Positions 1 through 10,688 of a stretch of 10,688 bases of DNA are shown here, piece by piece. The notes below the pieces were generated by a model. It ran no database searches and had not been told where the DNA came from. It worked only from the letters and a program-made list of their open reading frames with translations. The stretch comes from a virus (taxonomy: Duplodnaviria > Heunggongvirae > Uroviricota > Caudoviricetes): the IMG/VR virus record IMGVR_UViG_2778261676_000006, positions 1 through 10,688 of that record. One strand, given 5' to 3'. The translations under genes and the position numbers were made by a program. Every line of letters begins with the position of its first letter. Within the stretch, counting starts at the first letter, position 1.

Positions 1-996
1 TTATGGACGCATTATGGACATTCCTGACACCGGGTTAAGAGTCACAGCATCTTGTAAGAAATCCGGTGCAAAGTGTGCGTAGGTCATAGTTTGCTGAATG
101 TTAGAATGACCCAGGATGCGCTGCAATGTGATTATGTTACCTCCATTCATTATAAAATGTGTGGCAAATGTATGCCTCAAAACATGTACTGCTTGTCCGT
201 CAGGTAAATCGGGTTTTACTTCCCTGAGAGCGTTACGCACTTTGTAGTAACTGGCATTAAAAAGCCTGCCTGAATTTTTGGTCTTGATCCGTTTAATCAG
301 GTCCTGCGAAACGGGAATTGTCCTGCGTTTTCCGTTTTTAGTTTTCATAAACGTAACCATCTGGTTAATGATGTGTTCAGCTTTTAAATTAGCCACTTCA
401 CTCCAGCGTCCACCAGTAGAAAGGCAGACCAGAGTTGCATTTAATTCATCACCATCAAGCATGGATAACAGCCGCGTAATCTCTTCACTGGACAAAAAAG
501 CCATTTCCGTAACAGCTTCACGTAACCGTTTAATCTCACGGAACGGGTTGTGAGAGTGGTATTCACCGGCGTCAATTAACTTGGTGAACATCCCACTCAT
601 TATTGCCAGATGTCGATTTACGCTGGCTGGTTTTAGACCATCGTTCATCATTACAACGCGATAATCAGTTATCGTTTTCTTTGTTAGCTGGTCAGCTCTG
701 GACACTCCCATTTCTGCAAATTTGGCGATTATTGTCGTTAAACGCCCCCGTTCAATATCTCCACGCTCATGTGATTTTCCGTGATATATCCACCATCTGC
801 CTAACAACTCTGTAAGAGTTCGGCGGTCGGCTGGTTTCTCCAACCACTCTTTGTTGTGGTAGTTAACCAGTACATGACGTTCGAATGCTTGAGCTTCACC
901 TTTAGTTTTAAATTTCCGCCTGATACGTTTTCCATCTGCACCCTGCGGTCTGACGTCCACTTCATAACGACCATCATCGAGCTTTTTAATAGACAT
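1..996 (-). CDS. int: P2-type tyrosine integrase (site-specific recombinase, phage integrase family)
   Basis: 331-aa ORF. C-terminal catalytic box HVLRHTFATHF...LQRILGHSNIQQTMTYAHF (conserved R/H/R/Y pattern of tyrosine recombinases). N-terminus MSIKKLDDGRYEVDVRP matches P2 Int as I recall it. Lies directly downstream of the repressor on the same strand, as in P2. Confidence 0.9.
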   Translation of the reverse strand: MSIKKLDDGRYEVDVRPQGADGKRIRRKFKTKGEAQAFERHVLVNYHNKEWLEKPADRRTLTELLGRWWIYHGKSHERGDIERGRLTTIIAKFAEMGVSRADQLTKKTITDYRVVMMNDGLKPASVNRHLAIMSGMFTKLIDAGEYHSHNPFREIKRLREAVTEMAFLSSEEITRLLSMLDGDELNATLVCLSTGGRWSEVANLKAEHIINQMVTFMKTKNGKRRTIPVSQDLIKRIKTKNSGRLFNASYYKVRNALREVKPDLPDGQAVHVLRHTFATHFIMNGGNIITLQRILGHSNIQQTMTYAHFAPDFLQDAVTLNPVSGMSIMRP

Positions 997-1089
997 AAAG
1001 CCCTCCGATGACGCTGTTAACTTCTACTACTTGAAAATTAATGCAATTTTCTTTCGTACATTTACTACACACATATGCTGAATAAATCG

Positions 1090-1389
1090 TCAGCCAGTCT
1101 TCTGGTCTGAGTGGTGCAAGGTTGTTGAGTCTTGCCCAATGTGTGCGAGAGCCGGGGCTATTTGTCCAGCTGCTGGATCTGTTTCATCAAACATGAACCA
1201 GTCACGATACTTGCGAAAGCGTGGATGCTTAAACAGCTTCATACCTGCTTCCATAGGCATTTTTGATTTTCCTGATTCATATCCATGATATGTGTAGTAA
1301 TTAATTCCAATTAATTCAGCAAGTTCCTTAGTTTTAAGGCGTTCGGATTCACGGATGAGCTTTAGTTTCTCACTTTGTTCACTTGACAT
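1090..1389 (-). CDS. C: P2 C-type immunity repressor (small HTH repressor)
   Basis: The track ORF 1090..1407 uses a TTG start. The internal ATG at 1389 gives 99 aa (MSSEQSEKLKLIRESE...), the length of P2 C. The C-terminal half GQIAPALAHIGQDSTTLHHSDQKTG closely resembles the P2 C C-terminus as I recall it. HTH-like segment LKTKELAELIGINYYTYHGYESG. Sits between int and the divergent cox gene. Confidence 0.75.
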   Translation of the reverse strand: MSSEQSEKLKLIRESERLKTKELAELIGINYYTYHGYESGKSKMPMEAGMKLFKHPRFRKYRDWFMFDETDPAAGQIAPALAHIGQDSTTLHHSDQKTG

Positions 1390-1407
1390 AATTTTGCTAA
1401 TCTCCAA

Positions 1408-1482
1408 TTATATTGTTACTTGGCAATTTGTGATTCACTCAAAAAGGCTCTAGATGGCTCCAGTTGGTGAATCGCAAATCTT
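1408..1482. promoter_or_regulatory. Divergent early promoter/operator region (Pc/Pe-like) between C and cox
   Basis: 75-bp AT-rich spacer between divergent genes. A TATAAT hexamer reads on the minus strand at about 1407-1412 (plus strand attata). Direct repeat aGGCTC / tGGCTC at about 1445-1450 and 1455-1460 (10-bp periodicity) flanks a TAGAT -10-like element on the plus strand, reminiscent of the direct-repeat operators bound by P2-family C repressors. Confidence 0.4.
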
Positions 1483-1497
1483 ATGGAGGATAGCAAA

Positions 1498-1854
1498 GTG
1501 ACGACAAATGTAGAAATTTCTTGTCCAACTAGCGATGAGGCAAGTTTCGAAAATGAAGCCAAACGTAAAAGCATTCAGATTTCAGAGCGCCCATCTGATT
1601 TGCTGTCGAAAGAAGGTTTTGCTCTTTACATCGGTAAGACACCACGCGCGGTGGCTGAAATGGCTAAAGCAGGAAAGCTGCCAGCCTTCTACATGACAGA
1701 CCCATTAAAACCAAGAGGGAAAGCTGAATTATGGATTAATCGCCGTGAGTGGGACAAGTACGCAGCCCAACTGGTTGATGAAGCTCCGACAGAATGGCAT
1801 GACTGGAAAAATCGCATTAGTTACAGCAAATCAAGACATGGCCGTGCGGCTTAA
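1498..1854 (+). CDS. cox: Cox-like excisionase / early-promoter regulator
   Basis: Track ORF 1483..1854. GGAGGA at 1485-1490 followed 7 nt later by in-frame GTG 1498 suggests the real start. Segment GKTPRAVAEMAKAGKLPAFYMTDP resembles the winged-helix core of P2 Cox (GKLPVIDMTDP as recalled). First gene transcribed divergently from C. Confidence 0.6.
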   Translation: MTTNVEISCPTSDEASFENEAKRKSIQISERPSDLLSKEGFALYIGKTPRAVAEMAKAGKLPAFYMTDPLKPRGKAELWINRREWDKYAAQLVDEAPTEWHDWKNRISYSKSRHGRAA

Positions 1855-2035
1855 GGTGGAAAGGATGAACGAGCCTCGTTGTATTGCTCTGTTATTGCGT
1901 AACGAAAGCCCCAGGGCGATTGACTTCACCATCACCCACGGGAAGGGACGCAAGGGAATCATTATCCGTACCAAAAAACAGAGTCCGTTAAAAAAGGCTC
2001 TGACCTTTCTGAAAAGCCGGAGGGTCTGGAAATGA
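1799..2035 (+). CDS. Small early-region protein (P2 orf78-like position), start uncertain
   Basis: Open frame 1745..2035 ends with ATGA overlap into gene B. Candidate starts are ATG 1799 (78 aa), ATG 1838, or ATG 1865 (preceded by AAGGTGGA, the best SD). The stop is firm; the start is not resolvable from sequence alone. Confidence 0.35.
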   Translation: MTGKIALVTANQDMAVRLKVERMNEPRCIALLLRNESPRAIDFTITHGKGRKGIIIRTKKQSPLKKALTFLKSRRVWK

Positions 2036-2532
2036 CAGTGATGACGCTTAACCTCGTCGAAAAACAGCCAGCAGCCATGCGCCGGATAATTGGTAAGCAT
2101 CTGGCCGTCCCTCGCTGGCAGGAGACATGTGATTATTATAATCAGATGATGGAACGCGAACGGCTAACGGTTTGCTTTCATGCGCAGTTAAAACAGCGTC
2201 ACGCAACGATGCGTTTTGAAGAAATGAATGACGTCGAACGTGAACGGCTGGTTTGTGCAATTGATGAACTGCGTGGGGCATTCTCAAAACGCCGTCAGGT
2301 TGGCGCAAGTGAGTATGCATATATTAGTTTTTTAACAGTCAGTCAGCGTCGCACTTTATTTATGCACGCACGACTGACAGAAAAAGAATTTAACCAGCCA
2401 TACTGGCGAATTAATGAGGAATCATGTTACTGGCGTGATGCTTTATTCCGTGCATTACGTGAATTATTCAGCCTGTTTGAGTATGCACCGACAATTCTGA
2501 CGTCGGTAAAACCAGAGCAATATCTGCATTAA
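2032..2532 (+). CDS. B: Replication gene B protein (P2 gpB family, DnaB helicase loader)
   Basis: 166-aa ORF; the sequence MT.MTLNLVEKQPAAMRRIIGKHLAVPRWQ...FEYAPTILTSVKPEQYLH matches P2 B protein as I recall it, and the length is the same. SD GGAGGG lies upstream; the start overlaps the upstream stop (ATGA). Confidence 0.85.
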   Translation: MTVMTLNLVEKQPAAMRRIIGKHLAVPRWQETCDYYNQMMERERLTVCFHAQLKQRHATMRFEEMNDVERERLVCAIDELRGAFSKRRQVGASEYAYISFLTVSQRRTLFMHARLTEKEFNQPYWRINEESCYWRDALFRALRELFSLFEYAPTILTSVKPEQYLH

Positions 2533-2552
2533 ATAATTAACCAGAGTTTTTA

Positions 2553-2581
2553 ACGCACTTAATCGTGCGGGGCTTCTTTTT
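2553..2581 (+). terminator. Weak hairpin plus T-tract between B and the next ORF (possible attenuator)
   Basis: cgcac-ttaatc-gtgcg 5-bp stem followed by gggcttcttttt. Short stem and interrupted T-run, so weak at best. Confidence 0.2.
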
Positions 2582-2595
2582 GCCTGGAGAAAGTC

Positions 2596-2820
2596 ATGCA
2601 TACAGTTTCTGAAAATCAGTGCGGTAAATACGCATTACTGCTGCAACAGGCCAGAACCGAAGCACAGGCCGACGCTGCGACGCGCTTTTCTTCTCATCTT
2701 GACGCCATGATTCGCCATATCACAAAGGCGGAGTTATCCCGCGTGGAGATAGTCGAGCTGCTCAGTCAGGAGTCGGAAAAATTTCACAATATCGGATTGT
2801 CTCGCGGGGAGGTGCTTTGA
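2596..2820 (+). CDS. Hypothetical early-region protein (P2 orf80-like position)
   Basis: 74-aa ORF with SD GGAGA upstream of ATG 2596; same strand and spacing as the small ORFs between B and A in P2-like phages. Confidence 0.65.
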
Positions 2821-3119
2821 TGTCCTGTTCTCATTCAATTGTATTACTGAATAACGCCTTAAAAATCGCCGTTATGAAAAATGGCGATTTATCTCTTATT
2901 CAACTTTGTCTTGATAAAGAAAAACGCGACATAACTGAATCTGTTATCGCGATTTATCAGAATGAATTAAACCTCCTGTCTGATATGGTCAATTTACTTG
3001 TTAAACGCGCTGTGTTCCACAAGCAAATTTCCTCAGTGGATGAACTGACAAAATTAACGACAGAACTCGCCAGTTATTGCGCTGATGTATCCAGGAAACT
3101 TAACGATAAAAGGAGCTGA
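2820..3119 (+). CDS. Hypothetical early-region protein (P2 orf81-like position)
   Basis: Track ORF starts at TTG 2817; ATG 2820 overlaps the upstream stop (TGATG), with SD GGGAGG upstream. About 99 aa. Confidence 0.65.
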   Translation: MSCSHSIVLLNNALKIAVMKNGDLSLIQLCLDKEKRDITESVIAIYQNELNLLSDMVNLLVKRAVFHKQISSVDELTKLTTELASYCADVSRKLNDKRS

Positions 3120-3121
3120 TA

Positions 3122-3223
3122 ATGCCGGACAACGTAGATTTTATTCAGGAACAACAGGCTGAATTACTGGAGCGCCAGATTAACGCGGCAAGGGTAAAAC
3201 ATTGCGGTGTTTCTGCGCTGGTT
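3122..3223 (+). pseudogene. 5' fragment of orf82-like gene (probable TraR/DksA-type zinc-finger protein), truncated at a deletion junction
   Basis: Good SD (AAAGGAG) and ATG 3122. The N-terminus MPDNVDFIQEQQAELLERQINAARVKHCG looks like the start of a TraR/DksA-like small protein, but the C4 zinc-finger cysteines never appear. After about codon 34 the frame continues as an out-of-frame reading of gene A sequence up to 3538. Confidence 0.45.
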
Positions 3224-3993
3224 ACCGTGAACTACGCAAATTGCCTCGCGGCGTCAGCATTGCTGATGAGTTTGACGAGCGCGTCGAGGCTGCACGCGCC
3301 GCCGCAGACAGTGGTGATTTTGCGCTGTATATCAGCGCGCAGGGCGGGGCAAATGTCCCGCGCGATTGTCAGACTGTCAGGGTCGCCCGTAGTCCGTCGG
3401 ATGACGTTAACGAGTACGAGGAAGAAGTCGAGAGAGTGGTCGGCATTTACGCGCCGCATCTCGGCGCGCGTCATATTCATATCACCAGAACCACGGACTG
3501 GCGCATTGTGCCGAAAGTGCCGGTCATTGAGCCTTTGACTTTAAAAAGCGGCATCGCCGCGCCTCGGAGTCCTGTCAATAACTGTGGAAAGCTCACCGGT
3601 GGTGATACTTCGTCACCGGCTCCCACGCCTTCTGAACACGCCGCAGCAGTGCTTAATCTGGTTGATGATGGTGTTATCGAATGGAATGACCCGGAGGTCG
3701 TGAGGGCGCTCAGGGGTGCATTAAAACACGACCTGAGAACGCCAAACCGTCAGCAAAGAAACGGAAGCCCGTTAAAACCACATGAAATTGCACCATCGGC
3801 CAGACTGACCCGGTCGGAAAGAATGCAAATTACCCGTATCCGCGTTGACCTTACTCAGAACGGTATCAGGCCGCAGCGATGGGAGCTTGAGGCGCTGGCG
3901 CGTGGCGCGACCGTAAATTATGACGGGAAAAAATTCACGTATCCGGTCGCTGATGAGTGGCCGGGATTCTCAACAGTAATGGAGTGGAAATGA
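3221..3993 (+). pseudogene. A: 3' fragment (about 258 codons) of P2-type replication initiator gene A, lacking the N-terminal two-thirds
   Basis: The 263-aa open frame has no credible start (opens at TTG 3202 inside the orf82 frame; no SD or ATG near its 5' end). The sequence ...YRELRKLPRGVSIADEFDERVEAARAAADSGDFALYISAQGG...TVMEWK matches the C-terminal region of P2 gpA as I recall it. Full-length A is about 760 aa. Confidence 0.7.
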
Positions 3994-4445
3994 TGGCAAA
4001 AATTCACGAGGTAAAGCTGCACGCAAAATATTTTGACCTTGTGCTGGAAGGAAAGAAACGCGCAGAGTTTCGGAAAAATGACCGTAATTATGAGCGCGGG
4101 GACACGTTGATTTTGCATGAATGGGTGCAGGGTGTGTATACGGGGCGAAAGGTTGAAGCCCGGATAACAGATGTTACTGACTTGTCAGACTGGCTGGAAG
4201 ATTATGTCTTGCTAAGTATTGAGCTGCTTAATACAGGCGCATATGAGTTTGTGAACTGGAAAGAACTTAGTGAGCGTGGTCTGGTATTCAGAATTAATCA
4301 TGAAATTATGCATCAGCTCGGCCTTGCTGTTGTGTATGAACCAGAGACGGGGATGTCTGGCGGGGCAGTGGTTGGTGCGGATGGGATATGGAACTATTCA
4401 GATGAACAGGTGGAGCGTGCACAGCAAAACGGGTGGCTTGGATAA
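3990..4445 (+). CDS. ASCH/DUF3850-like (PUA-fold) protein
   Basis: Track ORF 3957..4445; ATG 3990 overlaps the stop of the A fragment (ATGA). N-terminal KIHEVKLHAKYFDLVLEGKKRAEFRKNDRNYERGDTLILHEW resembles ASCH/DUF3850 domains common in phage early regions. Confidence 0.65.
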   Translation: MMAKIHEVKLHAKYFDLVLEGKKRAEFRKNDRNYERGDTLILHEWVQGVYTGRKVEARITDVTDLSDWLEDYVLLSIELLNTGAYEFVNWKELSERGLVFRINHEIMHQLGLAVVYEPETGMSGGAVVGADGIWNYSDEQVERAQQNGWLG

Positions 4446-4651
4446 TGCACAGAATACCAGGCGAGATACCGCAGCATAAAACTAAAAATATCAAGCTGAT
4501 GGCCATTGTTCACCGTCTACAGCAGATTATGGTCAACGAAAATCTGACGCCCGATGAGCTAGTCGGGTGTGCCGAAATAGTCCGGGATAATTACGTATGG
4601 CTTAACTATATCGGTCAGCCCAGCGCTGCACCGCCACCACGCAGACGATAG
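4445..4651 (+). CDS. Hypothetical small protein (68 aa)
   Basis: ATG 4445 overlaps the upstream stop (TAATG); GC-rich like the phage backbone. No recognisable motifs. Confidence 0.4.
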   Translation: MHRIPGEIPQHKTKNIKLMAIVHRLQQIMVNENLTPDELVGCAEIVRDNYVWLNYIGQPSAAPPPRRR

Positions 4652-4840
4652 AGAACGCAGCCAGCTCAGGATTGGCGGGGGATAGAATAACGAGCATAGT
4701 GATGCGATTAGACAAACAGACTGACTGGTACACTTAGGATGGTTATAGTGGTTTCTAAGTGCTTTAGCGATACATCTGGTGGACTGTTTTACCAACCTCA
4801 GAGTTAGCTGAATTTTTAACAAAATACCATTTTGATAGAT

Positions 4841-4869
4841 TTGCCTAATTTATTAATTAAACTATACTG
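4841..4869 (+). promoter_or_regulatory. Candidate sigma70-like promoter for the + strand cargo operon
   Basis: TTGCCT (about 4841-4846), 16-nt spacer, TATACT (about 4863-4868), in an AT-rich stretch about 90 bp upstream of ATG 4960. Confidence 0.3.
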
Positions 4870-4959
4870 GACTTATACACAGTGTTCTGTTAATTGTTAG
4901 GTTGGTAAGATATTGTGAGGAGGTGATTACTATCTTGGCATCAATCAAGTGGAGGTTAA

Positions 4960-5196
4960 ATGATGAATATATTTGAACGTATTATAGGTAAAGCTGCTAT
5001 TGAAAAGGAAAGAGAACTGGCGAGGAGGCTTGAAGCATCTGGAACAAACACTGTTGAGGTGGTAGGTCGAGGCGCGATTATCACGTCTAAAGAAGACTTG
5101 GCAAGCTCAGATACAGTAAAATTGATGAAAATTAAAGCAAGAAAAATAGTTTCTGAGCAGGTAAAGCAAGAAGAAAAAATGGCTAAAGGGAATTAA
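4960..5196 (+). CDS. Small charged soluble protein (78 aa), first gene of a two-gene cargo operon
   Basis: GGAGG at 4951-4955 precedes ATG 4960/4963. Lysine/glutamate-rich, no TM segment. The stop is 2 nt before the start of the next gene. Low GC. Confidence 0.6.
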   Translation: MMNIFERIIGKAAIEKERELARRLEASGTNTVEVVGRGAIITSKEDLASSDTVKLMKIKARKIVSEQVKQEEKMAKGN

Positions 5197-5198
5197 TA

Positions 5199-5960
5199 AT
5201 GTTTGCTTTATTAATTATTCCATTACTTGTGAGTGGTTATATTGTATTAACCACTCATCCTTATCATTTCTATAGATTACACCGTTATGATGGGCAGTTG
5301 TTATATATGAAGTCAGCCGCCTTTGGTCTGTGGTGTTTTATATGGACATTGATTATAGCTTACTTAATAAAATGGATATGTCCGAGCTTCCATCCTGTCA
5401 CGATGGTTCGGGAACAATTAGATCTCAAACTTAGTGACAATGGTACTGAAAGAATCATAGGATGGATGATTTTACTTTCATGTGGAACGATATTTTTGGC
5501 TTGGATATGGAGTGTCGGTGCTAGATATTTGGTTATATATAGAGCTAAAATTATAAATTATATCCAAGGGGTAAAGGCTGCCAATATTGATTATGAGAAT
5601 CTTGTCATGCTAAGGATGAGGCAAGAGCTTATTAATGATAATCCAATGGATGAAATATTTTTTGATTCGTTAGTTGATAGACGTTCAATACTTATTACGT
5701 TGCAAAATAAAAAGACATATGTAGGAATTGTTAACGCATTAGGTGAGCCTAACGAGAAAGAAGGACCTAACCAGTATGTTTCAATCTATCCTATTATCTC
5801 TGGGTATAGAGATAAGGATTCATTGAAAGTAATCTTGGTGAATGAATATAGAGAGCTTGAGGATGCTGATACTAGTATCATCTTTCCACTAAAAGAAATT
5901 TCGCAAGTTTCTTGGTTTGATATGGATATTCATAAAATAGTTGAAAATAATAAGGTGTAG
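5199..5960 (+). CDS. Predicted integral membrane protein (3 N-terminal TM helices plus a soluble C-terminal domain of about 145 aa)
   Basis: 253-aa ORF. Hydrophobic segments FALLIIPLLVSGYIVL, AAFGLWCFIWTLIIAYLIKWI and IIGWMILLSCGTIFLAWIWSV. SD AAAGGGAA upstream; tightly coupled to the upstream gene. Low GC. Confidence 0.7.
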   Translation: MFALLIIPLLVSGYIVLTTHPYHFYRLHRYDGQLLYMKSAAFGLWCFIWTLIIAYLIKWICPSFHPVTMVREQLDLKLSDNGTERIIGWMILLSCGTIFLAWIWSVGARYLVIYRAKIINYIQGVKAANIDYENLVMLRMRQELINDNPMDEIFFDSLVDRRSILITLQNKKTYVGIVNALGEPNEKEGPNQYVSIYPIISGYRDKDSLKVILVNEYRELEDADTSIIFPLKEISQVSWFDMDIHKIVENNKV

Positions 5961-5963
5961 TAA

Positions 5964-5988
5964 ATGGTCACCTATAAAAGGTGACCAT
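5964..5988. terminator. Bidirectional intrinsic terminator between the convergent cargo operons
   Basis: Perfect 9-bp inverted repeat ATGGTCACC-tataaaa-GGTGACCAT, followed by a T-run on the + strand (ttattttt) and flanked by an A-rich stretch (T-rich on the - strand). Sits exactly between the stop at 5960 (+) and the stop at 5994 (-). Confidence 0.55.
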
Positions 5989-5993
5989 AATGC

Positions 5994-8258
5994 TTATTTT
6001 TGACGAATCCTGATTTTTGGTTGTTCACGAACAACAATATCAGTTTCTTTCCAACCAAGATTATTTATTTCAACCTCGGCTTCGTTGTAGACTGTAGTAG
6101 AATTGGCAAGAGATCTTAACGTAATAGCCAATACAGCACGTTGAGGTGAAGATAGAGGCTCTTGCTCTGCTCGTCTCTGAACATCAAGTTTAAGTCTCCA
6201 TTGCTCCCCATTTATACCTTGCGGAAATTGTTTTCTATAAACTTTGACTGGAGACCATTTGAAGCCATTTTCTATCAGTACCTTTTCAAATAATTCACTC
6301 TTTTCTTTTATTTGTGGAATTTTTCCGCTATGTATCCATTTAGCGTTAACTGGATCATAAGTGTAAGTCCCGAATGACACATCCACATTAGAACGGCAAT
6401 ATTCGGATGGGTAGTCATAATCAAGCGGTGGAGAATAAACGAGTGTCATAATAATTTCACCTGTGAATTTTCCATCCTCAGTACGTAATGACTGTGGTAT
6501 TACAAATGGCGTTCTACTGAATTCAATACCTTCTCGGGTATCTATTTCAAATAGAAATGTAATCTCATTTTTATTGCAACCAATAATATCATTTATATGA
6601 TCGCTTGGGCGTCCAAATCCTTGATAATTAAACGCATAATGCTCCGTTTTGGCTGGTGAGTTTTTTAACGCAGAATGAATTAATAGTGCCTTGATACGTT
6701 CAGGCGATGGTGAAATAGAACCATTAACATCTAGTTCATGCCACAGTGATGCCGCTAAACTTGAGATTAACGGTGCTGATAAACTTGTGCCAATACTTTC
6801 GCAAAGAGCATTGTCCTCGCCAATAGCTATGATTCCGGTATGTTCACAGTTTAATTTACTGTCACAATTACCTCCAAAGTGATTTATCTCTGGTTTGGGT
6901 ATAAAGGCTGGGCCGGGACCTCTTCTAGAAAAAGATGAAGGTTCAAATCTTTTGACCACAGAGTCAGACGATTCTAAATGGGCAACTGAGCCAACAGTTA
7001 ATGAACGAACAGAATCTGCGGGGGCTGATATTCTGTCATGCCCACCTAATTCTTGAGGAGGCCAGGTTCGTTGAGGATCATAAATGTAGTTGCCGGATGC
7101 TACGACGAAAAGACAATCATGCTCATCATGAAGTGCATTTAAAAAATGCCCCAATTCAGAGAAGCTGTCTTCAGAACATGGGGATTGACAACCTAATGAC
7201 AGATTCCATACACGTACTTCTGGATAGGTGGTCACAGCCTCTCGGATAGCTTTCATTAATTGTGGCAATTTGAGCGTACCATCTTTGGGAAAGGCTGCAA
7301 CATCAACAATTTCAGCTTGGCATTGAGGAAAACCAGCATAGTTATTCAACCATCTTCCATTAATTGCTAAACTTGCAACCATGTTCCCATGAGAATAGTC
7401 GTGTTCTCCTTTTACTAAATCTAAACTATCCCAAATCCATGGCCTAAGTATGTTGTTATTGGGATCGACTCCGCTATCTATAATTCCGAGTAGTGGATAA
7501 TGTTTATCCTCTTGAGGTAAGGGAAAATCATCTAGGTCTAGAGTTTCAGCAGGAATATATTGCGATACTGTATGAGTAAGACCAAATGTTGGCATAGGTT
7601 CTAATTTTCGTATGCCAATAAAACTTGCCAGTTGGGCGATGTTATCATTCCCTTTTACTTCATATATACTCAAATCTGAACTGATATCATACTTTTTGGG
7701 TTTTTGTATTCCTAGTTCATCTGCAAATTCCATTAATTCTTTGTCGATACTGCGGTTAGTTGTTCTATCTTTATGGTCAAAGAGTTTCAGAAGAAAACTA
7801 TCTGATTTATTTTTATCTATAACATCATGGTTAAGACTAAAAGGTTCGATCTTTTCAATTACAGCAATATGTACTGTCCCATTATGAGAATTAGTGCTAT
7901 TTTCAATTTTTTTGCGAAGTTGTGCTAACCCTTTTTCAGTAACACTTATAAGTAATTCTCCAAAATTATCACTGCCTATTACGGGACATGTATTATCACC
8001 TAATAGGCTTGATGGGCGATGTGACTTAGCAAGAGCTTTTTCATGAAGAGTAACTCTAGCCACCGCCGGTATATTGGGCCATTTTTTAAATGAGCTCTGG
8101 AAAAAATTTTTAACGTCATCGACTTCTTGTTTGAGTCTATTTTTTAGACTAGTTGTTACTGTTCGGATAGGTTGTTTCTTTCCGAAATTATATGTTTTTT
8201 CAGTAAAATCTTGAGGTGTCGCCTCAATTATTTTTATTGGTCTTTCTTTGTTACTCAT
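5994..8258 (-). CDS. ietS: S8 subtilisin-family serine peptidase, cytoplasmic, with extra N- and C-terminal domains (IetS-like)
   Basis: 754-aa ORF. S8 catalytic motifs in canonical order: Asp LLGIIDSGVD, His HGNMVASLA, oxyanion Asn VVASGNY, Ser GTSLSAPLISSLAA. No N-terminal signal peptide (MSNKERPIKIIEATPQDF). The start overlaps the stop of the upstream ATPase (ATGA at 8255-8258). Confidence 0.8.
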   Translation of the reverse strand: MSNKERPIKIIEATPQDFTEKTYNFGKKQPIRTVTTSLKNRLKQEVDDVKNFFQSSFKKWPNIPAVARVTLHEKALAKSHRPSSLLGDNTCPVIGSDNFGELLISVTEKGLAQLRKKIENSTNSHNGTVHIAVIEKIEPFSLNHDVIDKNKSDSFLLKLFDHKDRTTNRSIDKELMEFADELGIQKPKKYDISSDLSIYEVKGNDNIAQLASFIGIRKLEPMPTFGLTHTVSQYIPAETLDLDDFPLPQEDKHYPLLGIIDSGVDPNNNILRPWIWDSLDLVKGEHDYSHGNMVASLAINGRWLNNYAGFPQCQAEIVDVAAFPKDGTLKLPQLMKAIREAVTTYPEVRVWNLSLGCQSPCSEDSFSELGHFLNALHDEHDCLFVVASGNYIYDPQRTWPPQELGGHDRISAPADSVRSLTVGSVAHLESSDSVVKRFEPSSFSRRGPGPAFIPKPEINHFGGNCDSKLNCEHTGIIAIGEDNALCESIGTSLSAPLISSLAASLWHELDVNGSISPSPERIKALLIHSALKNSPAKTEHYAFNYQGFGRPSDHINDIIGCNKNEITFLFEIDTREGIEFSRTPFVIPQSLRTEDGKFTGEIIMTLVYSPPLDYDYPSEYCRSNVDVSFGTYTYDPVNAKWIHSGKIPQIKEKSELFEKVLIENGFKWSPVKVYRKQFPQGINGEQWRLKLDVQRRAEQEPLSSPQRAVLAITLRSLANSTTVYNEAEVEINNLGWKETDIVVREQPKIRIRQK

Positions 8259-9418
8259 AATATCTCTCTATAGTTCTTAGTTAGCCTTGACACTTTAGCA
8301 TTTGAAAGCCCTAGTATTTTTGCTATCTTTCGTATTGTAAATCTTTTGGGATTGTATTCTCTGAGAGTGGTCACAATCTTTATAAGTAAATTATCTTCTT
8401 CATCAAATGTAACTCCCTTCGCTTCTAAGATAGCCTCGACTAAAAATCGGGTATCGATTTGTTTATTATTGTAAACCAGAGCATGTCGCTCAGATCTTAA
8501 GCAGCATTGTTCTATAAATGAGCAGTTTAGCCCTGATGATATTTCCGCAAGGTCATCAACAAAATCGTCATATGTAGCTTTTATGTTTGAATATTGTTCA
8601 AATAGTTGTTTTCTGACTTCAAAATTAGGCAATCCAATAGATATTCTATACTCAAAGCGCCTCCAAACTGCGCTATCTAGAAGATTTTCATGATTACTTG
8701 CAGCAATCAATATTGTTTCTTCAGGTAGATTGTCAATATTTTGCAATAAAGAAACCACCACCCTCTTCAGTTCACCTAACTCATGCTGATCATCTCTAGC
8801 CTTTGCTAGAGAATCTAGTTCATCTAGAAATAAAACACATGGTGCTTTACTTGCATACTCAAATAGCTGCCTGATATTTTTAGAAGTAGACCCCAGATAT
8901 GATGAGACTAAGGAGTCACATCTTGCAGTAAGAAGCGGTAAATTTAGACAGGATGCAATATATTTTGATGTCAAGGTTTTACCACAACCTGGTGGCCCAT
9001 ATAAAATCATAGAGGATGTCACGCCAAGACCGGCATCCTTTAATTCTTTAGCTCGTTCAGTGAAAGTCAAAAATTCTTTAATTTTTTTCAGAGTGCTATC
9101 TTTCAACAATGGGAGTTGAATTTCAGAAGACGGTTGAGTTACGTCTGCTAAATCAAATTTAGTTTCTTTATCTACAGGTAATGTATCAAGACGTTCAAAA
9201 ATAGGTGATGTACTGCGTGATACTTTCTGCAAGTTAAACGTGTTTTTATCTTGAATACTACCTCTAATGGCTGAAGCAAGCTCAGGCAGCCCCATAGAAT
9301 CATAGGAACGCGCGAGTTTCGAAGCCTGCCGAACAAAAGCAACTTTATCCCCTTTGAGTCCAAGACTGATAAGCTGCGAAAGTATCTCGTTTGTGGTCAT
9401 TTGTGATACAAACCTCAT
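8255..9418 (-). CDS. ietA: AAA+ ATPase with C-terminal HTH-like tail (IetA-like)
   Basis: 387-aa ORF. Walker A GPPGCGKT (about 8975-8998), Walker B CVLFLDELD, sensor-1 LIAASNHEN, probable Arg finger in VWRRFEY. C-terminal IRKIAKILGLSNAKVSRLTKNY resembles a helix-turn-helix. Translationally coupled to the downstream S8 peptidase. Confidence 0.8.
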   Translation of the reverse strand: MRFVSQMTTNEILSQLISLGLKGDKVAFVRQASKLARSYDSMGLPELASAIRGSIQDKNTFNLQKVSRSTSPIFERLDTLPVDKETKFDLADVTQPSSEIQLPLLKDSTLKKIKEFLTFTERAKELKDAGLGVTSSMILYGPPGCGKTLTSKYIASCLNLPLLTARCDSLVSSYLGSTSKNIRQLFEYASKAPCVLFLDELDSLAKARDDQHELGELKRVVVSLLQNIDNLPEETILIAASNHENLLDSAVWRRFEYRISIGLPNFEVRKQLFEQYSNIKATYDDFVDDLAEISSGLNCSFIEQCCLRSERHALVYNNKQIDTRFLVEAILEAKGVTFDEEDNLLIKIVTTLREYNPKRFTIRKIAKILGLSNAKVSRLTKNYREIL

Positions 9419-9600
9419 TAATCTGTTGTCTAAATGGCTTATAGGTGAGACAAATTTCTATTTTAATGTAGTTTATATGTATTTTGGTGAAACGAACACT
9501 ATGTTTTACATAAATCTTTCAGGTTTGGAGTTCTTGGAGGGCATAGAGTTGCATCAATTTGCATTCTAATTAGACTTTTTTATTGCTATCGTATTCTACA
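9419..9600 (-). promoter_or_regulatory. AT-rich upstream region, presumed promoter of the ATPase-peptidase operon
   Basis: About 180 bp of AT-rich non-coding sequence upstream of the ATPase start on the minus strand, with several -10/-35-like hexamers; no single promoter can be assigned by eye. Confidence 0.3.
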
Positions 9601-9659
9601 TGTGACTAGGTCTGCCCTTCCTGATGCGTTTGCATTAAAACCTCCCCATGAAGCGGGCG

Positions 9660-9678
9660 GGCGAGGCGGGGAAAGCAC
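9660..9678. other. cos site (19-nt cohesive-end sequence of P2/P4 type)
   Basis: GGCGAGGCGGGGAAAGCAC matches the P2/P4 cohesive-end sequence as I recall it. It lies where cos is expected, between the cargo and the portal-side end of the genome. Confidence 0.6.
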
Positions 9679-9810
9679 TGCGCGCTGGCGGTGGTGCTGA
9701 TTTTATTTTTTCAGCGTCTGAGCGCGTCGTGATGGCGTTTAGATTGTGTTCCGGGGCCTGCGGGATGTTTTGCGCGGAGGTGAGCGTGTGAGGGCGTGAT
9801 GACGGGGTGT

Positions 9811-9832
9811 AAAAAAGCCGCCCGCAGGCGGC
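9811..9832 (-). terminator. Minus-strand intrinsic terminator (in P2 would end the leftward portal/terminase operon)
   Basis: On the minus strand: GCCGCC-tgcg-GGCGGC hairpin followed by TTTTTT (plus strand reads aaaaaa gccgcccgcaggcggc). Confidence 0.45.
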
Positions 9833-9938
9833 GATGTTCAGCCGTTGTCAGTGTCCAGTGAGTAGTTTTTAAAGCGGATGACCTCCTGACCGAGCCAGCC
9901 GTTTATTTCCCGAATCCTGTCCTGTAGCCTCCCGTAAC

Positions 9939-10688
9939 AGGCTGGAAGCCAGTGTCGCTCCGTCACTGGCCGGAATTAAAATCCCGCACATCGACCAGTC
10001 GCAGGAGTCTGATGCAAAATTCCTGACCCGCCTTGCTGAACGCAACGGCGGTGAGGTGTCGGTAAAAATGGGAAAATTGTTGTTTCTCAAAGCGGGGCAG
10101 GGGGTGACGGCCAGCGGTAAAAAAATCCCGCAGATTACCATCGCCCGCAGCGACGGCGACCGTCATCATTTTGCGATTGCTGACCGTGGAGCCTACACCG
10201 GCGTAACGGCAAAGTGGTTACACACCAAAGACCCGAAGCCACAAAAGCAGAAGGTAAAACTGAAACGCAAAAAGAAAGAGAAACACCTGCGCGCACTGGA
10301 GCACCCGAAAGCGAAACCGGTCACGCAGAAGAAAGCGCCAAAAGTACCGGAAGCGCGCGAAGGTGAATACATGGCCGGTGAGGATGACAATGTTTTTGCC
10401 CTGACCACGGTATATGCCACGAAAGCGCAGGCCATGCGCGCCGCTCAGGCGAAGTGGGATAAACTGCAACGGGGCGTTGCGGAGTTCTCCATCAGCCTGG
10501 CTACCGGTCGGGCAGATATTTACACGGAAACACCGGTTAAGGTGTCAGGCTTTAAGCGTGTCATAGACGAGCAGGACTGGACCATCACTAAGGTGACACA
10601 TTTTCTGAATAATAGCGGCTTCACGACGTCCTTAGAGCTTGAGGTCAGGCTTTCTGATGTGGAGTACGAAACAGAAGATGATGAGTGA
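9939..10688 (+). pseudogene. D: 5'-truncated tail gene D (P2 gpD / phage late control D family), C-terminal part only
   Basis: The frame opens right after a stop at 9936-9938. The sequence IKIPHIDQSQESDAKFLTRLAERNGGEVSVKMGKLLFLKAGQG...SLELEVRLSDVEYETEDDE matches the C-terminal region of P2 gpD as I recall it (full length about 387 aa). The first standard start is GTG 10056 (track ORF 10056..10688). Only about 260 bp separate it from cos, with no N-terminal coding sequence. Confidence 0.75.

Follow-up and report, generated by a model that had tools for sequence, protein, structure and literature searches.

The DNA stretch analysed (10,688 bp, hereafter the window) is the remnant of a P2-like (Peduovirus) prophage, found in one isolate of E. 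coli (GCA_002518955.1) and inserted between pflB and pflA, at the 5' end of the latter. The remnant is very probably a defective, recently decayed prophage, derived by two deletions from an intact parent of the DCE7/E302 type carrying the IetAS defence genes. The features identified are listed in Table 1.

Table 1. Features of the window.
Feature	Position	Strand	Evidence and remarks
int, P2-type tyrosine integrase, intact	1..996	-	Pfam Int_N and Phage_integrase
C-type immunity repressor, 99 aa, intact	1090..1389	-	weak Pfam HTH_19 match
predicted face-to-face Pe-like and Pc-like promoters, between C and cox	1383..1434	Pe-like +, Pc-like -	consensus scan
Cox, excisionase and Pc repressor, 123 aa, intact	1483..1854	+	Pfam Phage_Cox, E=3e-29
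P2 orf78 homologue	1865..2035	+	98% identical to P2 Orf78; phrog_273
replication gene B, intact	2032..2532	+	98% identical to P2 gpB, all 166 aa
P2 orf80 homologue, DUF2732	2596..2820	+	tblastn 98.6%; PHROGs; source-contig gene call
P2 orf81 homologue, DUF5405	2820..3119	+	tblastn 86.9%; PHROGs; source-contig gene call
orf82', 5' fragment, TraR/DksA-like, 34-35 codons	3122..3223	+	P2 Orf82 residues 1-35 only
'A, 3' third of replication gene A, pseudogene	3224..3993	+	residues about 505-761
orf91-like DUF3850/ASCH protein	3990..4445	+	source-contig Pfam; PHROGs; P2 Orf91 residues 1-75 at 97%
68-aa hypothetical protein	4445..4651	+	PHROGs
two low-GC cargo genes, 78 aa and 253 aa (hydrophobic N-terminal region)	4960..5960	+	
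IetS, S8 serine protease, intact	5994..8258	-	PADLOC E=1.1e-273, residues 1-747; Pfam Peptidase_S8
IetA, AAA ATPase partner of IetS, intact	8255..9400	-	PADLOC E=1.4e-131; Pfam AAA
cos core common to P2 and P4	9631..9685	+	19-nt cohesive end at 9660-9678
tQ terminator hairpin	about 9817-9832	-	sequence reading; tQ annotated in P2
Q', last 28 codons of portal gene Q	within 9811..9925	-	P2 Q residues 316-343 only
'D, 3' two-thirds of tail gene D, pseudogene	9926..10688	+	lacks own promoter and start codon

The attL core falls outside the window, 90 bp to the left of its first position. The source contig stops 23 bp beyond the D stop codon, and the right end of the element (ogr, attR, pflB) is unassembled. 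The break is probably due to a repeated D'/ogr copy; remnants of the D 3' end are common, being matched in 2,061 genomes, and in only 1,614 of these over the full length. Assuming a standard right end, excision is predicted to give a circle of 11,204 bp, as compared to the 11,624 bp of P4. The figure comes from two independent estimates, the D-stop-to-int-stop distance in phage P24A7b, which has the same int, C and cox (516 bp), and the attL/attR geometry of strain 98-3133 (90 + 407 + 19 bp). A preliminary description had put the element at roughly 11-12 kb, on condition that it ends shortly after D/ogr. The two estimates fall in this range, but the size is not readable from the data, because of the end of the contig just past D.

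The early module features the order int - C - Pe/Pc - cox - B typical of P2 and Peduovirus. Int, C and Cox hardly differ from their counterparts in the intact DCE7 prophage and in the sequenced phage P24A7b: 330 of 331 Int residues and all 99 C residues are shared with both, and Cox is identical to that of DCE7 (123/123) and differs at one position from that of P24A7b (122/123). Identity to the P2 proteins is 53% for Int, 50.5% over the full length for C, and 35% for Cox. The Pe-like and Pc-like sites fit the consensus at 10/12 positions each and are laid out as the annotated Pe/Pc of P2, and on these matches the pair may be a P2-type transcriptional switch. In such a switch C, made from Pc, would repress Pe, keeping cox off and conferring immunity to homoimmune phages such as P24A7b. 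An Rfam search and a tRNA scan of the window gave no match.

The replication gene A is not functional. In tblastn, P2 A matches the window at A residues 503-760 only; both the HUH motif (about residue 400) and Tyr450/Tyr454 were in the part deleted. With motif and catalytic tyrosines gone, no functional rolling-circle initiator is encoded and the element cannot replicate. What 'A does keep is the ori nick site (P2 29892, window 3566). Its surroundings are about 97% identical to P2 over 121 bp, with about 30 bp either side of the site matching exactly.

A 19-nt stretch identical to the P2 cohesive end (GGCGAGGCGGGGAAAGCAC) is present in the window, with 0.01 matches expected by chance. Over the 55-bp cos core the remnant agrees with the intact DCE7 prophage at every base and with P2 at all but two, and cohesive end and core sit between cargo and Q, as in Peduovirus. 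When all P2 late proteins were compared to the window by tblastn, only Q residues 316-343 and D residues 134-387 were found. The latter are 97.6% identical to P2, and only the C-terminal half of the Pfam Phage_GPD domain is matched. Of the operons for late morphogenesis and lysis (Q, P, O, N, M ... D) only these two fragments are left. The element is a remnant and not a phage, and cannot lyse the cell or make particles.

Intact-type relatives sharing att site, Int, C, Cox, B, orf91, cargo and cos core are found in DCE7 (NZ_CP090611), ETEC4089, C21-2 and E302. The remnant is 98.4-99.3% identical in DNA sequence to the intact IetAS-carrying Peduovirus prophages and is collinear with DCE7 except for two deletions: the intact elements keep orf82-orf83-A and the full Q-to-D late region, of which the remnant has only fragments. 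In the E302 prophage ISEc12 is found within A. Deletion 1 (junction 3223/3224) corresponds to 1,898 bp of DCE7 (L001 6224-8121), and took away A residues 1-504, most of orf82 and all of orf83. Deletion 2 (junction 9925/9926) removed about 22.9 kb, in P2 coordinates, from inside Q to D residue 133, with loss of terminase, capsid, lysis, tail and baseplate genes and the Z/fun locus. Microhomology of 2 bp is present at both junctions (TT and TA, respectively), and four truncated pseudogenes (orf82', 'A, Q', 'D) are left there. A prophage of the DCE7/E302 type, inserted at pflA by its own integrase, would have been turned into the remnant by two illegitimate recombination events at these microhomologies. 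The right end being unassembled, a rearrangement instead of a simple deletion, or a non-standard right end, is a less probable alternative.

Searches of 5,426 complete E. coli genomes, the GTDB representatives, IMG/VR and the JGI metagenomes gave no hit for either junction. Just 2 contigs carry the junction-specific ORFs, and the remnant is known from a single isolate. The 263-aa A' ORF and the 206-aa D' ORF led to the source contig, while a 138-aa orf82' fusion ORF and a 210-aa D' ORF with GTG start had no match on record. The A' ORF is also present in an independent Logan assembly, while the D' ORF is recorded from NCBI sources only. This difference, together with the location of the Q'/'D junction 787 bp from the end of a contig that stops 23 bp past D, could point to a chimera of short-read assembly, the prophage being intact or otherwise arranged. 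Such an artefact is highly improbable. The junction has only 2 bp of microhomology, on which graph assemblers do not join sequences; deletion 1 has been reproduced independently, and comparable real deletions occur in closed genomes.

The cargo (4650-9420, GC 0.32-0.39) is interposed between gpA/orf91 and cos/gpQ, the P2 defence hotspot next to cos defined by Rousset et al. 2022 (PMC9122126). PADLOC and Pfam identify an intact IetAS operon, in which ietA and ietS are adjacent, co-oriented, full length, and overlap by 4 bp. IetA is identical to the common variant at 380 of 381 residues, the sole difference being D259N, and the exact IetS sequence is found on 527 contigs. The 78-aa and 253-aa proteins match phrog_37504 and phrog_3630, families of unknown function, and have no match in PADLOC or Pfam; their genes have a GC content of 0.32-0.37, and the exact sequences are on about 390 contigs. 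The preliminary description had depicted a P2 derivative of about P4 size, devoid of capsid genes and functional A, in which int, Cox, C repressor, cos and defence cargo are retained. The analysis confirms each of these traits, the size on the assumption of a standard right end.

The four cargo genes, IetA and IetS included, would be expressed from their own promoters, and may provide anti-phage defence by lysogenic conversion. IetAS has been described as toxin-antitoxin-like (PMC13069673). The operon could work as an addiction module, the protease being the toxin and the ATPase the antitoxin, and deletions reaching into the cargo would be disfavoured. This property of IetAS may itself explain why the cargo survived.

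Defective P2-like prophages combining conserved defence genes and pseudogenised replication genes have already been reported (PMC13586616, NAR 2026). The remnant is similarly organized, with P2 core markers, a pseudogenised replication gene and intact defence genes between gpA/orf91 and cos/gpQ. It differs for the IetAS cargo, the pflA site and the two junctions, and among the collections searched is found in the source isolate only. It is therefore one more example of a published pattern, in which P2-like prophages lose replication and late genes and the cos-proximal defence cargo stays intact. Its value is modest, and lies in being a clean natural case, with both junctions mapped to the base and an intact, 99% identical parent type for comparison.

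Other late-deleted remnants were found in the closed genomes of O157:H16 98-3133, at the pflA site, and of K_EC180 and W13-16, at the cpxP/fieF site. Discounting an IS30 insertion, their sizes are 10.8, 11.5 and 11.9 kb. All three resemble the remnant in keeping early region, cargo and cos, and in having lost most or all late genes. In contrast, A and Q are intact in them, and the junctions, the cargo (HNH endonuclease, retron, other) and, in two, the att site are different. The search was biased towards remnants keeping cos and cargo, and towards the same size class. An 89-aa ORF, corresponding to the terminase C-terminus, is common to 98-3133 and K_EC180 and found on 490 contigs, and had suggested a widespread mini-P2 lineage. 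The hypothesis was rejected, because an intact P C-terminus is missing from just 24 of the 1,622 records matched, no junction occurs more than once in the 5,426 genomes, and the 98-3133 flanks are 100% identical to other genomes and about 96% to K_EC180.

The element may have been domesticated as a non-mobile defence and immunity island, selection keeping C immunity and the IetAS and two-gene defence, and purging late genes that are costly or lethal. Cargo and immunity genes are indeed intact, and replication and late genes destroyed. The same holds for the defective P2 elements already described, for which domestication is raised as an open question (PMC13586616), and the three other remnants likewise keep early region, cargo and cos. 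This reading is possible, yet clearly on the doubtful side. The sample of other remnants is biased, as mentioned, towards elements keeping cos and cargo, and a toxin-antitoxin-like IetAS could retain the cargo with no benefit for the host. Moreover, a single isolate, about 99% identical to intact cargo-matched prophages, leaves too little time for purifying selection to show. For the same reasons the remnant is to be regarded as young, and the notion of a domesticated element, kept in the long term for its cargo and immunity, is not supported. As a product of recent decay, the remnant would still have cos, ori, int and cox because the deletions happened to miss them, and not through adaptation to piracy.

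Retention of int, cox, ori and cos, and a size near one-third of P2, is also what a mobilisable element would show. The Int/Cox-excised 11.2-kb circle might have its cos recognised by the terminase of a P2-like helper and spread IetAS horizontally, with T=7 heads taking a trimer (33.6 kb) or, if P4 is co-present, T=4 heads made by Sid taking a monomer. In favour of this are a cos core unchanged from the intact relative, the conserved ori nick site, and undamaged int and cox. The circle approaches P4 in length, and three copies (33,612 bp) approach P2 (33,593 bp). P2/P4 systems package cos plasmids, and a P2 head can be filled, if inefficiently, by a set of three P4 genomes (PMC6893505). The defective P2-like Sp13 of O157 Sakai has been found in DNase-resistant particles (PMC2669165). 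For all this, mobilisation by a helper, as envisaged in the preliminary description, is improbable. The P4 hallmark genes sid, psu, delta, epsilon, alpha and alpA are all missing; the best E-value obtained by searching all P4 proteins against the window by tblastn was 0.25. P2 A acts in cis and, A being non-functional, an excised circle would remain single-copy. Expression of cox is under the remnant's own C, which would also repress the phages whose Int and Cox match, these being homoimmune; in the heteroimmune P2, Int and Cox are only 53% and 35% identical. The junctions were found in no other genome, virome or metagenome searched, and the other remnants of roughly 11 kb are each singletons among 5,426 genomes. 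Immunity logic and cis-acting A thus argue against efficient helper transfer.

The size, put forward as a P4-like trait, is no evidence for mobilisation, as the layout of the P2 genome accounts for it. The non-late part of any P2-like genome, made up of early region, cargo and ends, comes to about 10-11 kb, and the three other remnants, which are independent, fall between 10.8 and 11.9 kb. The match to P4 in size, and that of three copies to P2, accordingly do not speak for packaging selection. A functional cos-bearing mini-P2, in which C is inactivated, for example by the epsilon antirepressor of a co-resident P4, the own Int and Cox excise the element, and the terminase of a P2-like helper packages a monomer in small Sid-made capsids or a trimer of nearly exact P2 length, is slightly less probable still than mobilisation in general. 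If it were true, satellite-like, transducible defence islands could evolve by way of decayed P2 prophages. For the spread of defence systems the remnant would become relevant only on proof that cos-bearing remnants of roughly 11 kb are transferred with the aid of a helper.

The remnant is like P4 in predicted size (about 11.2 vs 11.6 kb, the former value depending on the unassembled right end), 55-bp cos core, cos-side defence hotspot and absence of virion genes. It differs from P4 in having P2-type integrase and immunity, and in lacking an autonomous replicon and functions for helper derepression or transactivation. It is also like cos-type phage-inducible islands (e.g. SaPIbov5) in bearing the cos of a helper, the terminase of which packages the island. 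In these islands, however, a replicon and a helper-sensing repressor are part of the element, often along with genes redirecting capsid size; the remnant has none of these. Further P2 remnants deleted in the late region are Sp13 of O157 Sakai and the D'-ogrK remnant of K-12; unlike the remnant described here, Sp13 carries an epsilon-like gene.

The sequence corresponds exactly to bases 6800-17487 of the source contig locus L003 (contig NONG01000007.1, 188,492 bp, assembly GCA_002518955.1). The gene content was established from six-frame ORFs, Pfam, PADLOC, PHROGs and tblastn searches with every P2 and P4 protein. These analyses, together with the exact cohesive end, confirmed the features listed in the preliminary description. 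GC content is 0.32-0.39 in the cargo stretch vs 0.45-0.57 in the P2 core. Neither tRNA genes (tRNA scan) nor Rfam matches were found in the window.

Features of the P2-like remnant in window coordinates
Feature	Position	Strand
int	1-996	-
C repressor	1090-1389	-
Pe/Pc-like promoters, face-to-face	1383-1434	
cox	1483-1854	+
orf78 homologue	1865-2035	
B	2032-2532	
orf80 and orf81 homologues	2596-3119	
orf82 (TraR/DksA-like), first 34-35 codons	3122-3223	
A, last ~257 codons	3224-3993	
orf91-like DUF3850/ASCH gene	3990-4445	
68-aa ORF	4445-4651	
Two low-GC genes with no assigned function	4960-5960	
IetS	5994-8258	-
IetA	8255-9400	-
cos (cohesive end 9660-9678)	9631-9685	
tQ hairpin and last 28 codons of portal gene Q	up to 9925	-
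Tail gene D, codons 134-387	9926-10688	+

Seven complete E. coli genomes share this prophage, cargo and insertion site included, at 98-99% identity, and in all seven the match to the window ends at 9926 or 9928. The DCE7 prophage is intact, and runs on into portal, terminase and scaffold genes. Two deletions separate the window from such a prophage. The first extends from orf82 codon 35, through orf83, to A nucleotide 1514, and corresponds by alignment to bases 6224-8121 of the intact DCE7 locus L001 (1,898 bp). The second joins Q base 89, counted from the 3' end, to D nucleotide 401, with the loss of P2 coordinates 276-23190, about 22.9 kb. Microhomology is limited to 2 bp at each junction (TT in deletion 1, TA in deletion 2), which is typical of illegitimate recombination. 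A join made by the assembler is very unlikely, since 2-bp microhomology is not what assemblers join. The A' ORF (263 aa) is present also in an independent Logan assembly, and the A' and D' ORFs are found on two contigs only. The Q'/'D junction is present in none of 5,426 complete E. coli genomes and was not found in JGI metagenomes; neither junction was found in GTDB representatives or IMG/VR. Because the junctions are missing from these collections, the remnant is judged to be young and restricted to a single isolate.

E302, the closest relative, carries an ISEc12 element of the IS21 family in A, inserted at L001 8129-8134 (22141-24718 of the E302 locus L012). The right breakpoint of deletion 1 (L001 8122; window 3223/3224) is just 7 bp away. 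A simple IS-mediated event does not explain deletion 1, since no IS is present in the window and the 5 bp separating insertion and breakpoint are still there. Their nearness reflects either coincidence or a local hotspot.

The left flank of the prophage contains pflA, ycaK, ycaN and dms genes. By comparison with the empty K-12 site, the att core AATGCGACCAATAACTGAC covers the first bases of pflA, and the attL end is located 90 bp left of window position 1. The core overlaps the pflA start codon (L003 6691-6799 / L005 1561-1581, left of the window), and the native ATG is replaced upon integration. The pflA frame called in lysogens reads out from prophage sequence and gains 19 codons (798 vs 741 bp); the gene is also cut off from the pflB-pflA intergenic region. 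On the right side, the contig breaks off within the D-ogr spacer (L003 17488-17510), 23 bp past the stop codon of D, and ogr, attR and pflB lie beyond its assembled end. A break at this position suggests that the source genome has a further copy of the D 3' end and ogr, candidate sources being a second P2-like prophage or a K-12-type D'-ogrK remnant. A partial D 3' end is the best match in ~450 of the 5,426 genomes. The distance from D stop to int stop is 516 bp in the sequenced phage P24A7b, and likewise at the ends of the 98-3133 prophage (90 + 407 + 19 bp). With a standard right end, excision would give a circle of 11,204 bp, vs 11,624 bp for P4 and 33,593 bp for P2. No P4 protein has a match in the window (tblastn; best E-value 0.25).

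The cargo is located in the published P2 defence hotspot, which spans from gpA to gpQ and adjoins cos (PMC9122126). IetAS, formed by the AAA ATPase IetA and the S8 protease IetS, is recognised in the literature as a defence system, often prophage-borne in E. coli. The pair entered the literature as a toxin-antitoxin-like system that stabilises plasmids, the protease acting as toxin and the ATPase as antitoxin; how it counters phages is not yet known (PMC13069673). The IetS sequence recurs unchanged on 527 contigs. Compared with a variant present on 690 contigs, IetA has one conservative substitution, D259N, which is private: the exact window IetA is present in the source isolate only. Two low-GC genes lie beside IetAS in the hotspot, encoding proteins of 78 aa (4960-5196, +) and 253 aa (5199-5960, +), the latter being hydrophobic in its N-terminal part. 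PADLOC and Pfam gave no match to either gene, each hits a PHROG without known function, and the exact sequences are found on about 390 contigs. They may represent an undescribed defence or accessory pair.

The HUH motif of P2 A, near residue 400, and Tyr450 and Tyr454 in GYIAKYISK, which from the P2 literature we take to be the catalytic residues, all fall in the deleted part. The annotated P2 nick site (29892) corresponds to window 3566 and is conserved. The element thus keeps an origin and lacks the initiator. The intact prophage and the phage P24A7b have identical or near-identical Int, C and Cox (for P24A7b 330/331, 99/99 and 122/123 residues, respectively). Identity to the P2 proteins is only 53, 50 and 35% (tblastn), so the element is predicted to be heteroimmune to P2 and to use a different att site. 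Cox (123 aa) has a ~30-residue N-terminal extension relative to P2 Cox (91 aa); P24A7b annotates a shorter, 64-aa ORF in the same frame, and which start codon is used is therefore uncertain.

The P2 19-nt cohesive end has an exact match in the window, 0.01 matches being expected by chance. The 55-bp cos core is common to P2 and P4, and the window copy is identical to that of intact DCE7. One base, at 9643, is unusual (ACCTCCCC vs ACCGCCCC in P2, P4 and several isolated phages); the stretch around it varies among isolated phages too. The variant is probably tolerated, because the intact DCE7 prophage carries it. The element keeps about 240 bp of sequence left of the cohesive end and 247 bp right of it. 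The 9700-9760 tract, just right of cos, is nearer to 98-3133, PhiR44_1 and vB_YpM_50 than to DCE7, otherwise the closest relative, and constitutes a small mosaic patch.

The earlier reading is supported in part: the element is a P2 remnant of P4 size in which immunity, cos and defence cargo are intact. That it had been domesticated for its cargo, and might be transferred by P2-like helpers via cos, found no support; gene content, regulatory logic and distribution argue against both. As precedents for a helper-mobilisable P4-like island, three P4 genomes fit the P2 head, though inefficiently (PMC6893505), P2/P4 systems package cos plasmids, and the defective P2-like Sp13 of O157 Sakai was found in DNase-resistant particles (PMC2669165). 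However, the element encodes neither antirepressor nor transactivator, and its cox would be repressed by the remnant's own C. Phages with matching Int and Cox are homoimmune, and so would be blocked, whereas Int and Cox of heteroimmune helpers are divergent. The initiator is also absent, and as P2 A acts in cis, an excised circle would stay single-copy. No sign of spread was seen in any searched collection. That such remnants are transducible is very improbable. The window fits the published description of defective P2 prophages with conserved defence genes and pseudogenised replication genes in PMC13586616, which leaves open domestication as a cause, and adds another case to an already known class of element.

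Three remnants in closed genomes similarly keep early region, cargo and cos. That of 98-3133 (O157:H16), at pflA, measures 13,096 bp, or ~11.87 kb without a 1,221-bp IS30, and lacks P2 1506-22301. Two are located at cpxP/fieF: K_EC180 (11,491 bp; P2 1507-22408 deleted) and W13-16 (about 10.8 kb; organized as Q-P'(177 bp)-ogrK, with retron cargo). The three are independent of each other; cargo differs in all, and each junction occurs just once among the 5,426 genomes. Outside the late region, a P2-like genome comes to about 10-11 kb, so any late-region deletion leaves a 'P4-sized' remnant, and the search that discovered these three favoured a P4-like size class. The size is therefore not evidence of packaging selection. 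A widespread mini-P2 lineage, suggested by an 89-aa terminase-fragment ORF on 490 contigs, was dropped, as an intact P C-terminus is missing in only 24 of 1,622 matching records.

The 98-3133 and K_EC180 remnants differ in int, immunity and cargo. Their left breakpoints fall in terminase gene P at P2 nucleotides 1505 and 1506, within GGCGTGTA(G/A/T)CGG (18933/18934 in the 98-3133 locus L002, 14485/14486 in the K_EC180 locus L013), and the right ones are 107 bp apart. With only about 96% identity in the flanking DNA, separate events at a microhomology hotspot are the favoured reading. The retron-type cargo of W13-16 (locus L015, 2721-13490) consists of an HTH protein and a reverse transcriptase. 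Its 177-bp P fragment abuts or overlaps ogrK, and the entire late region, D included, is therefore gone.
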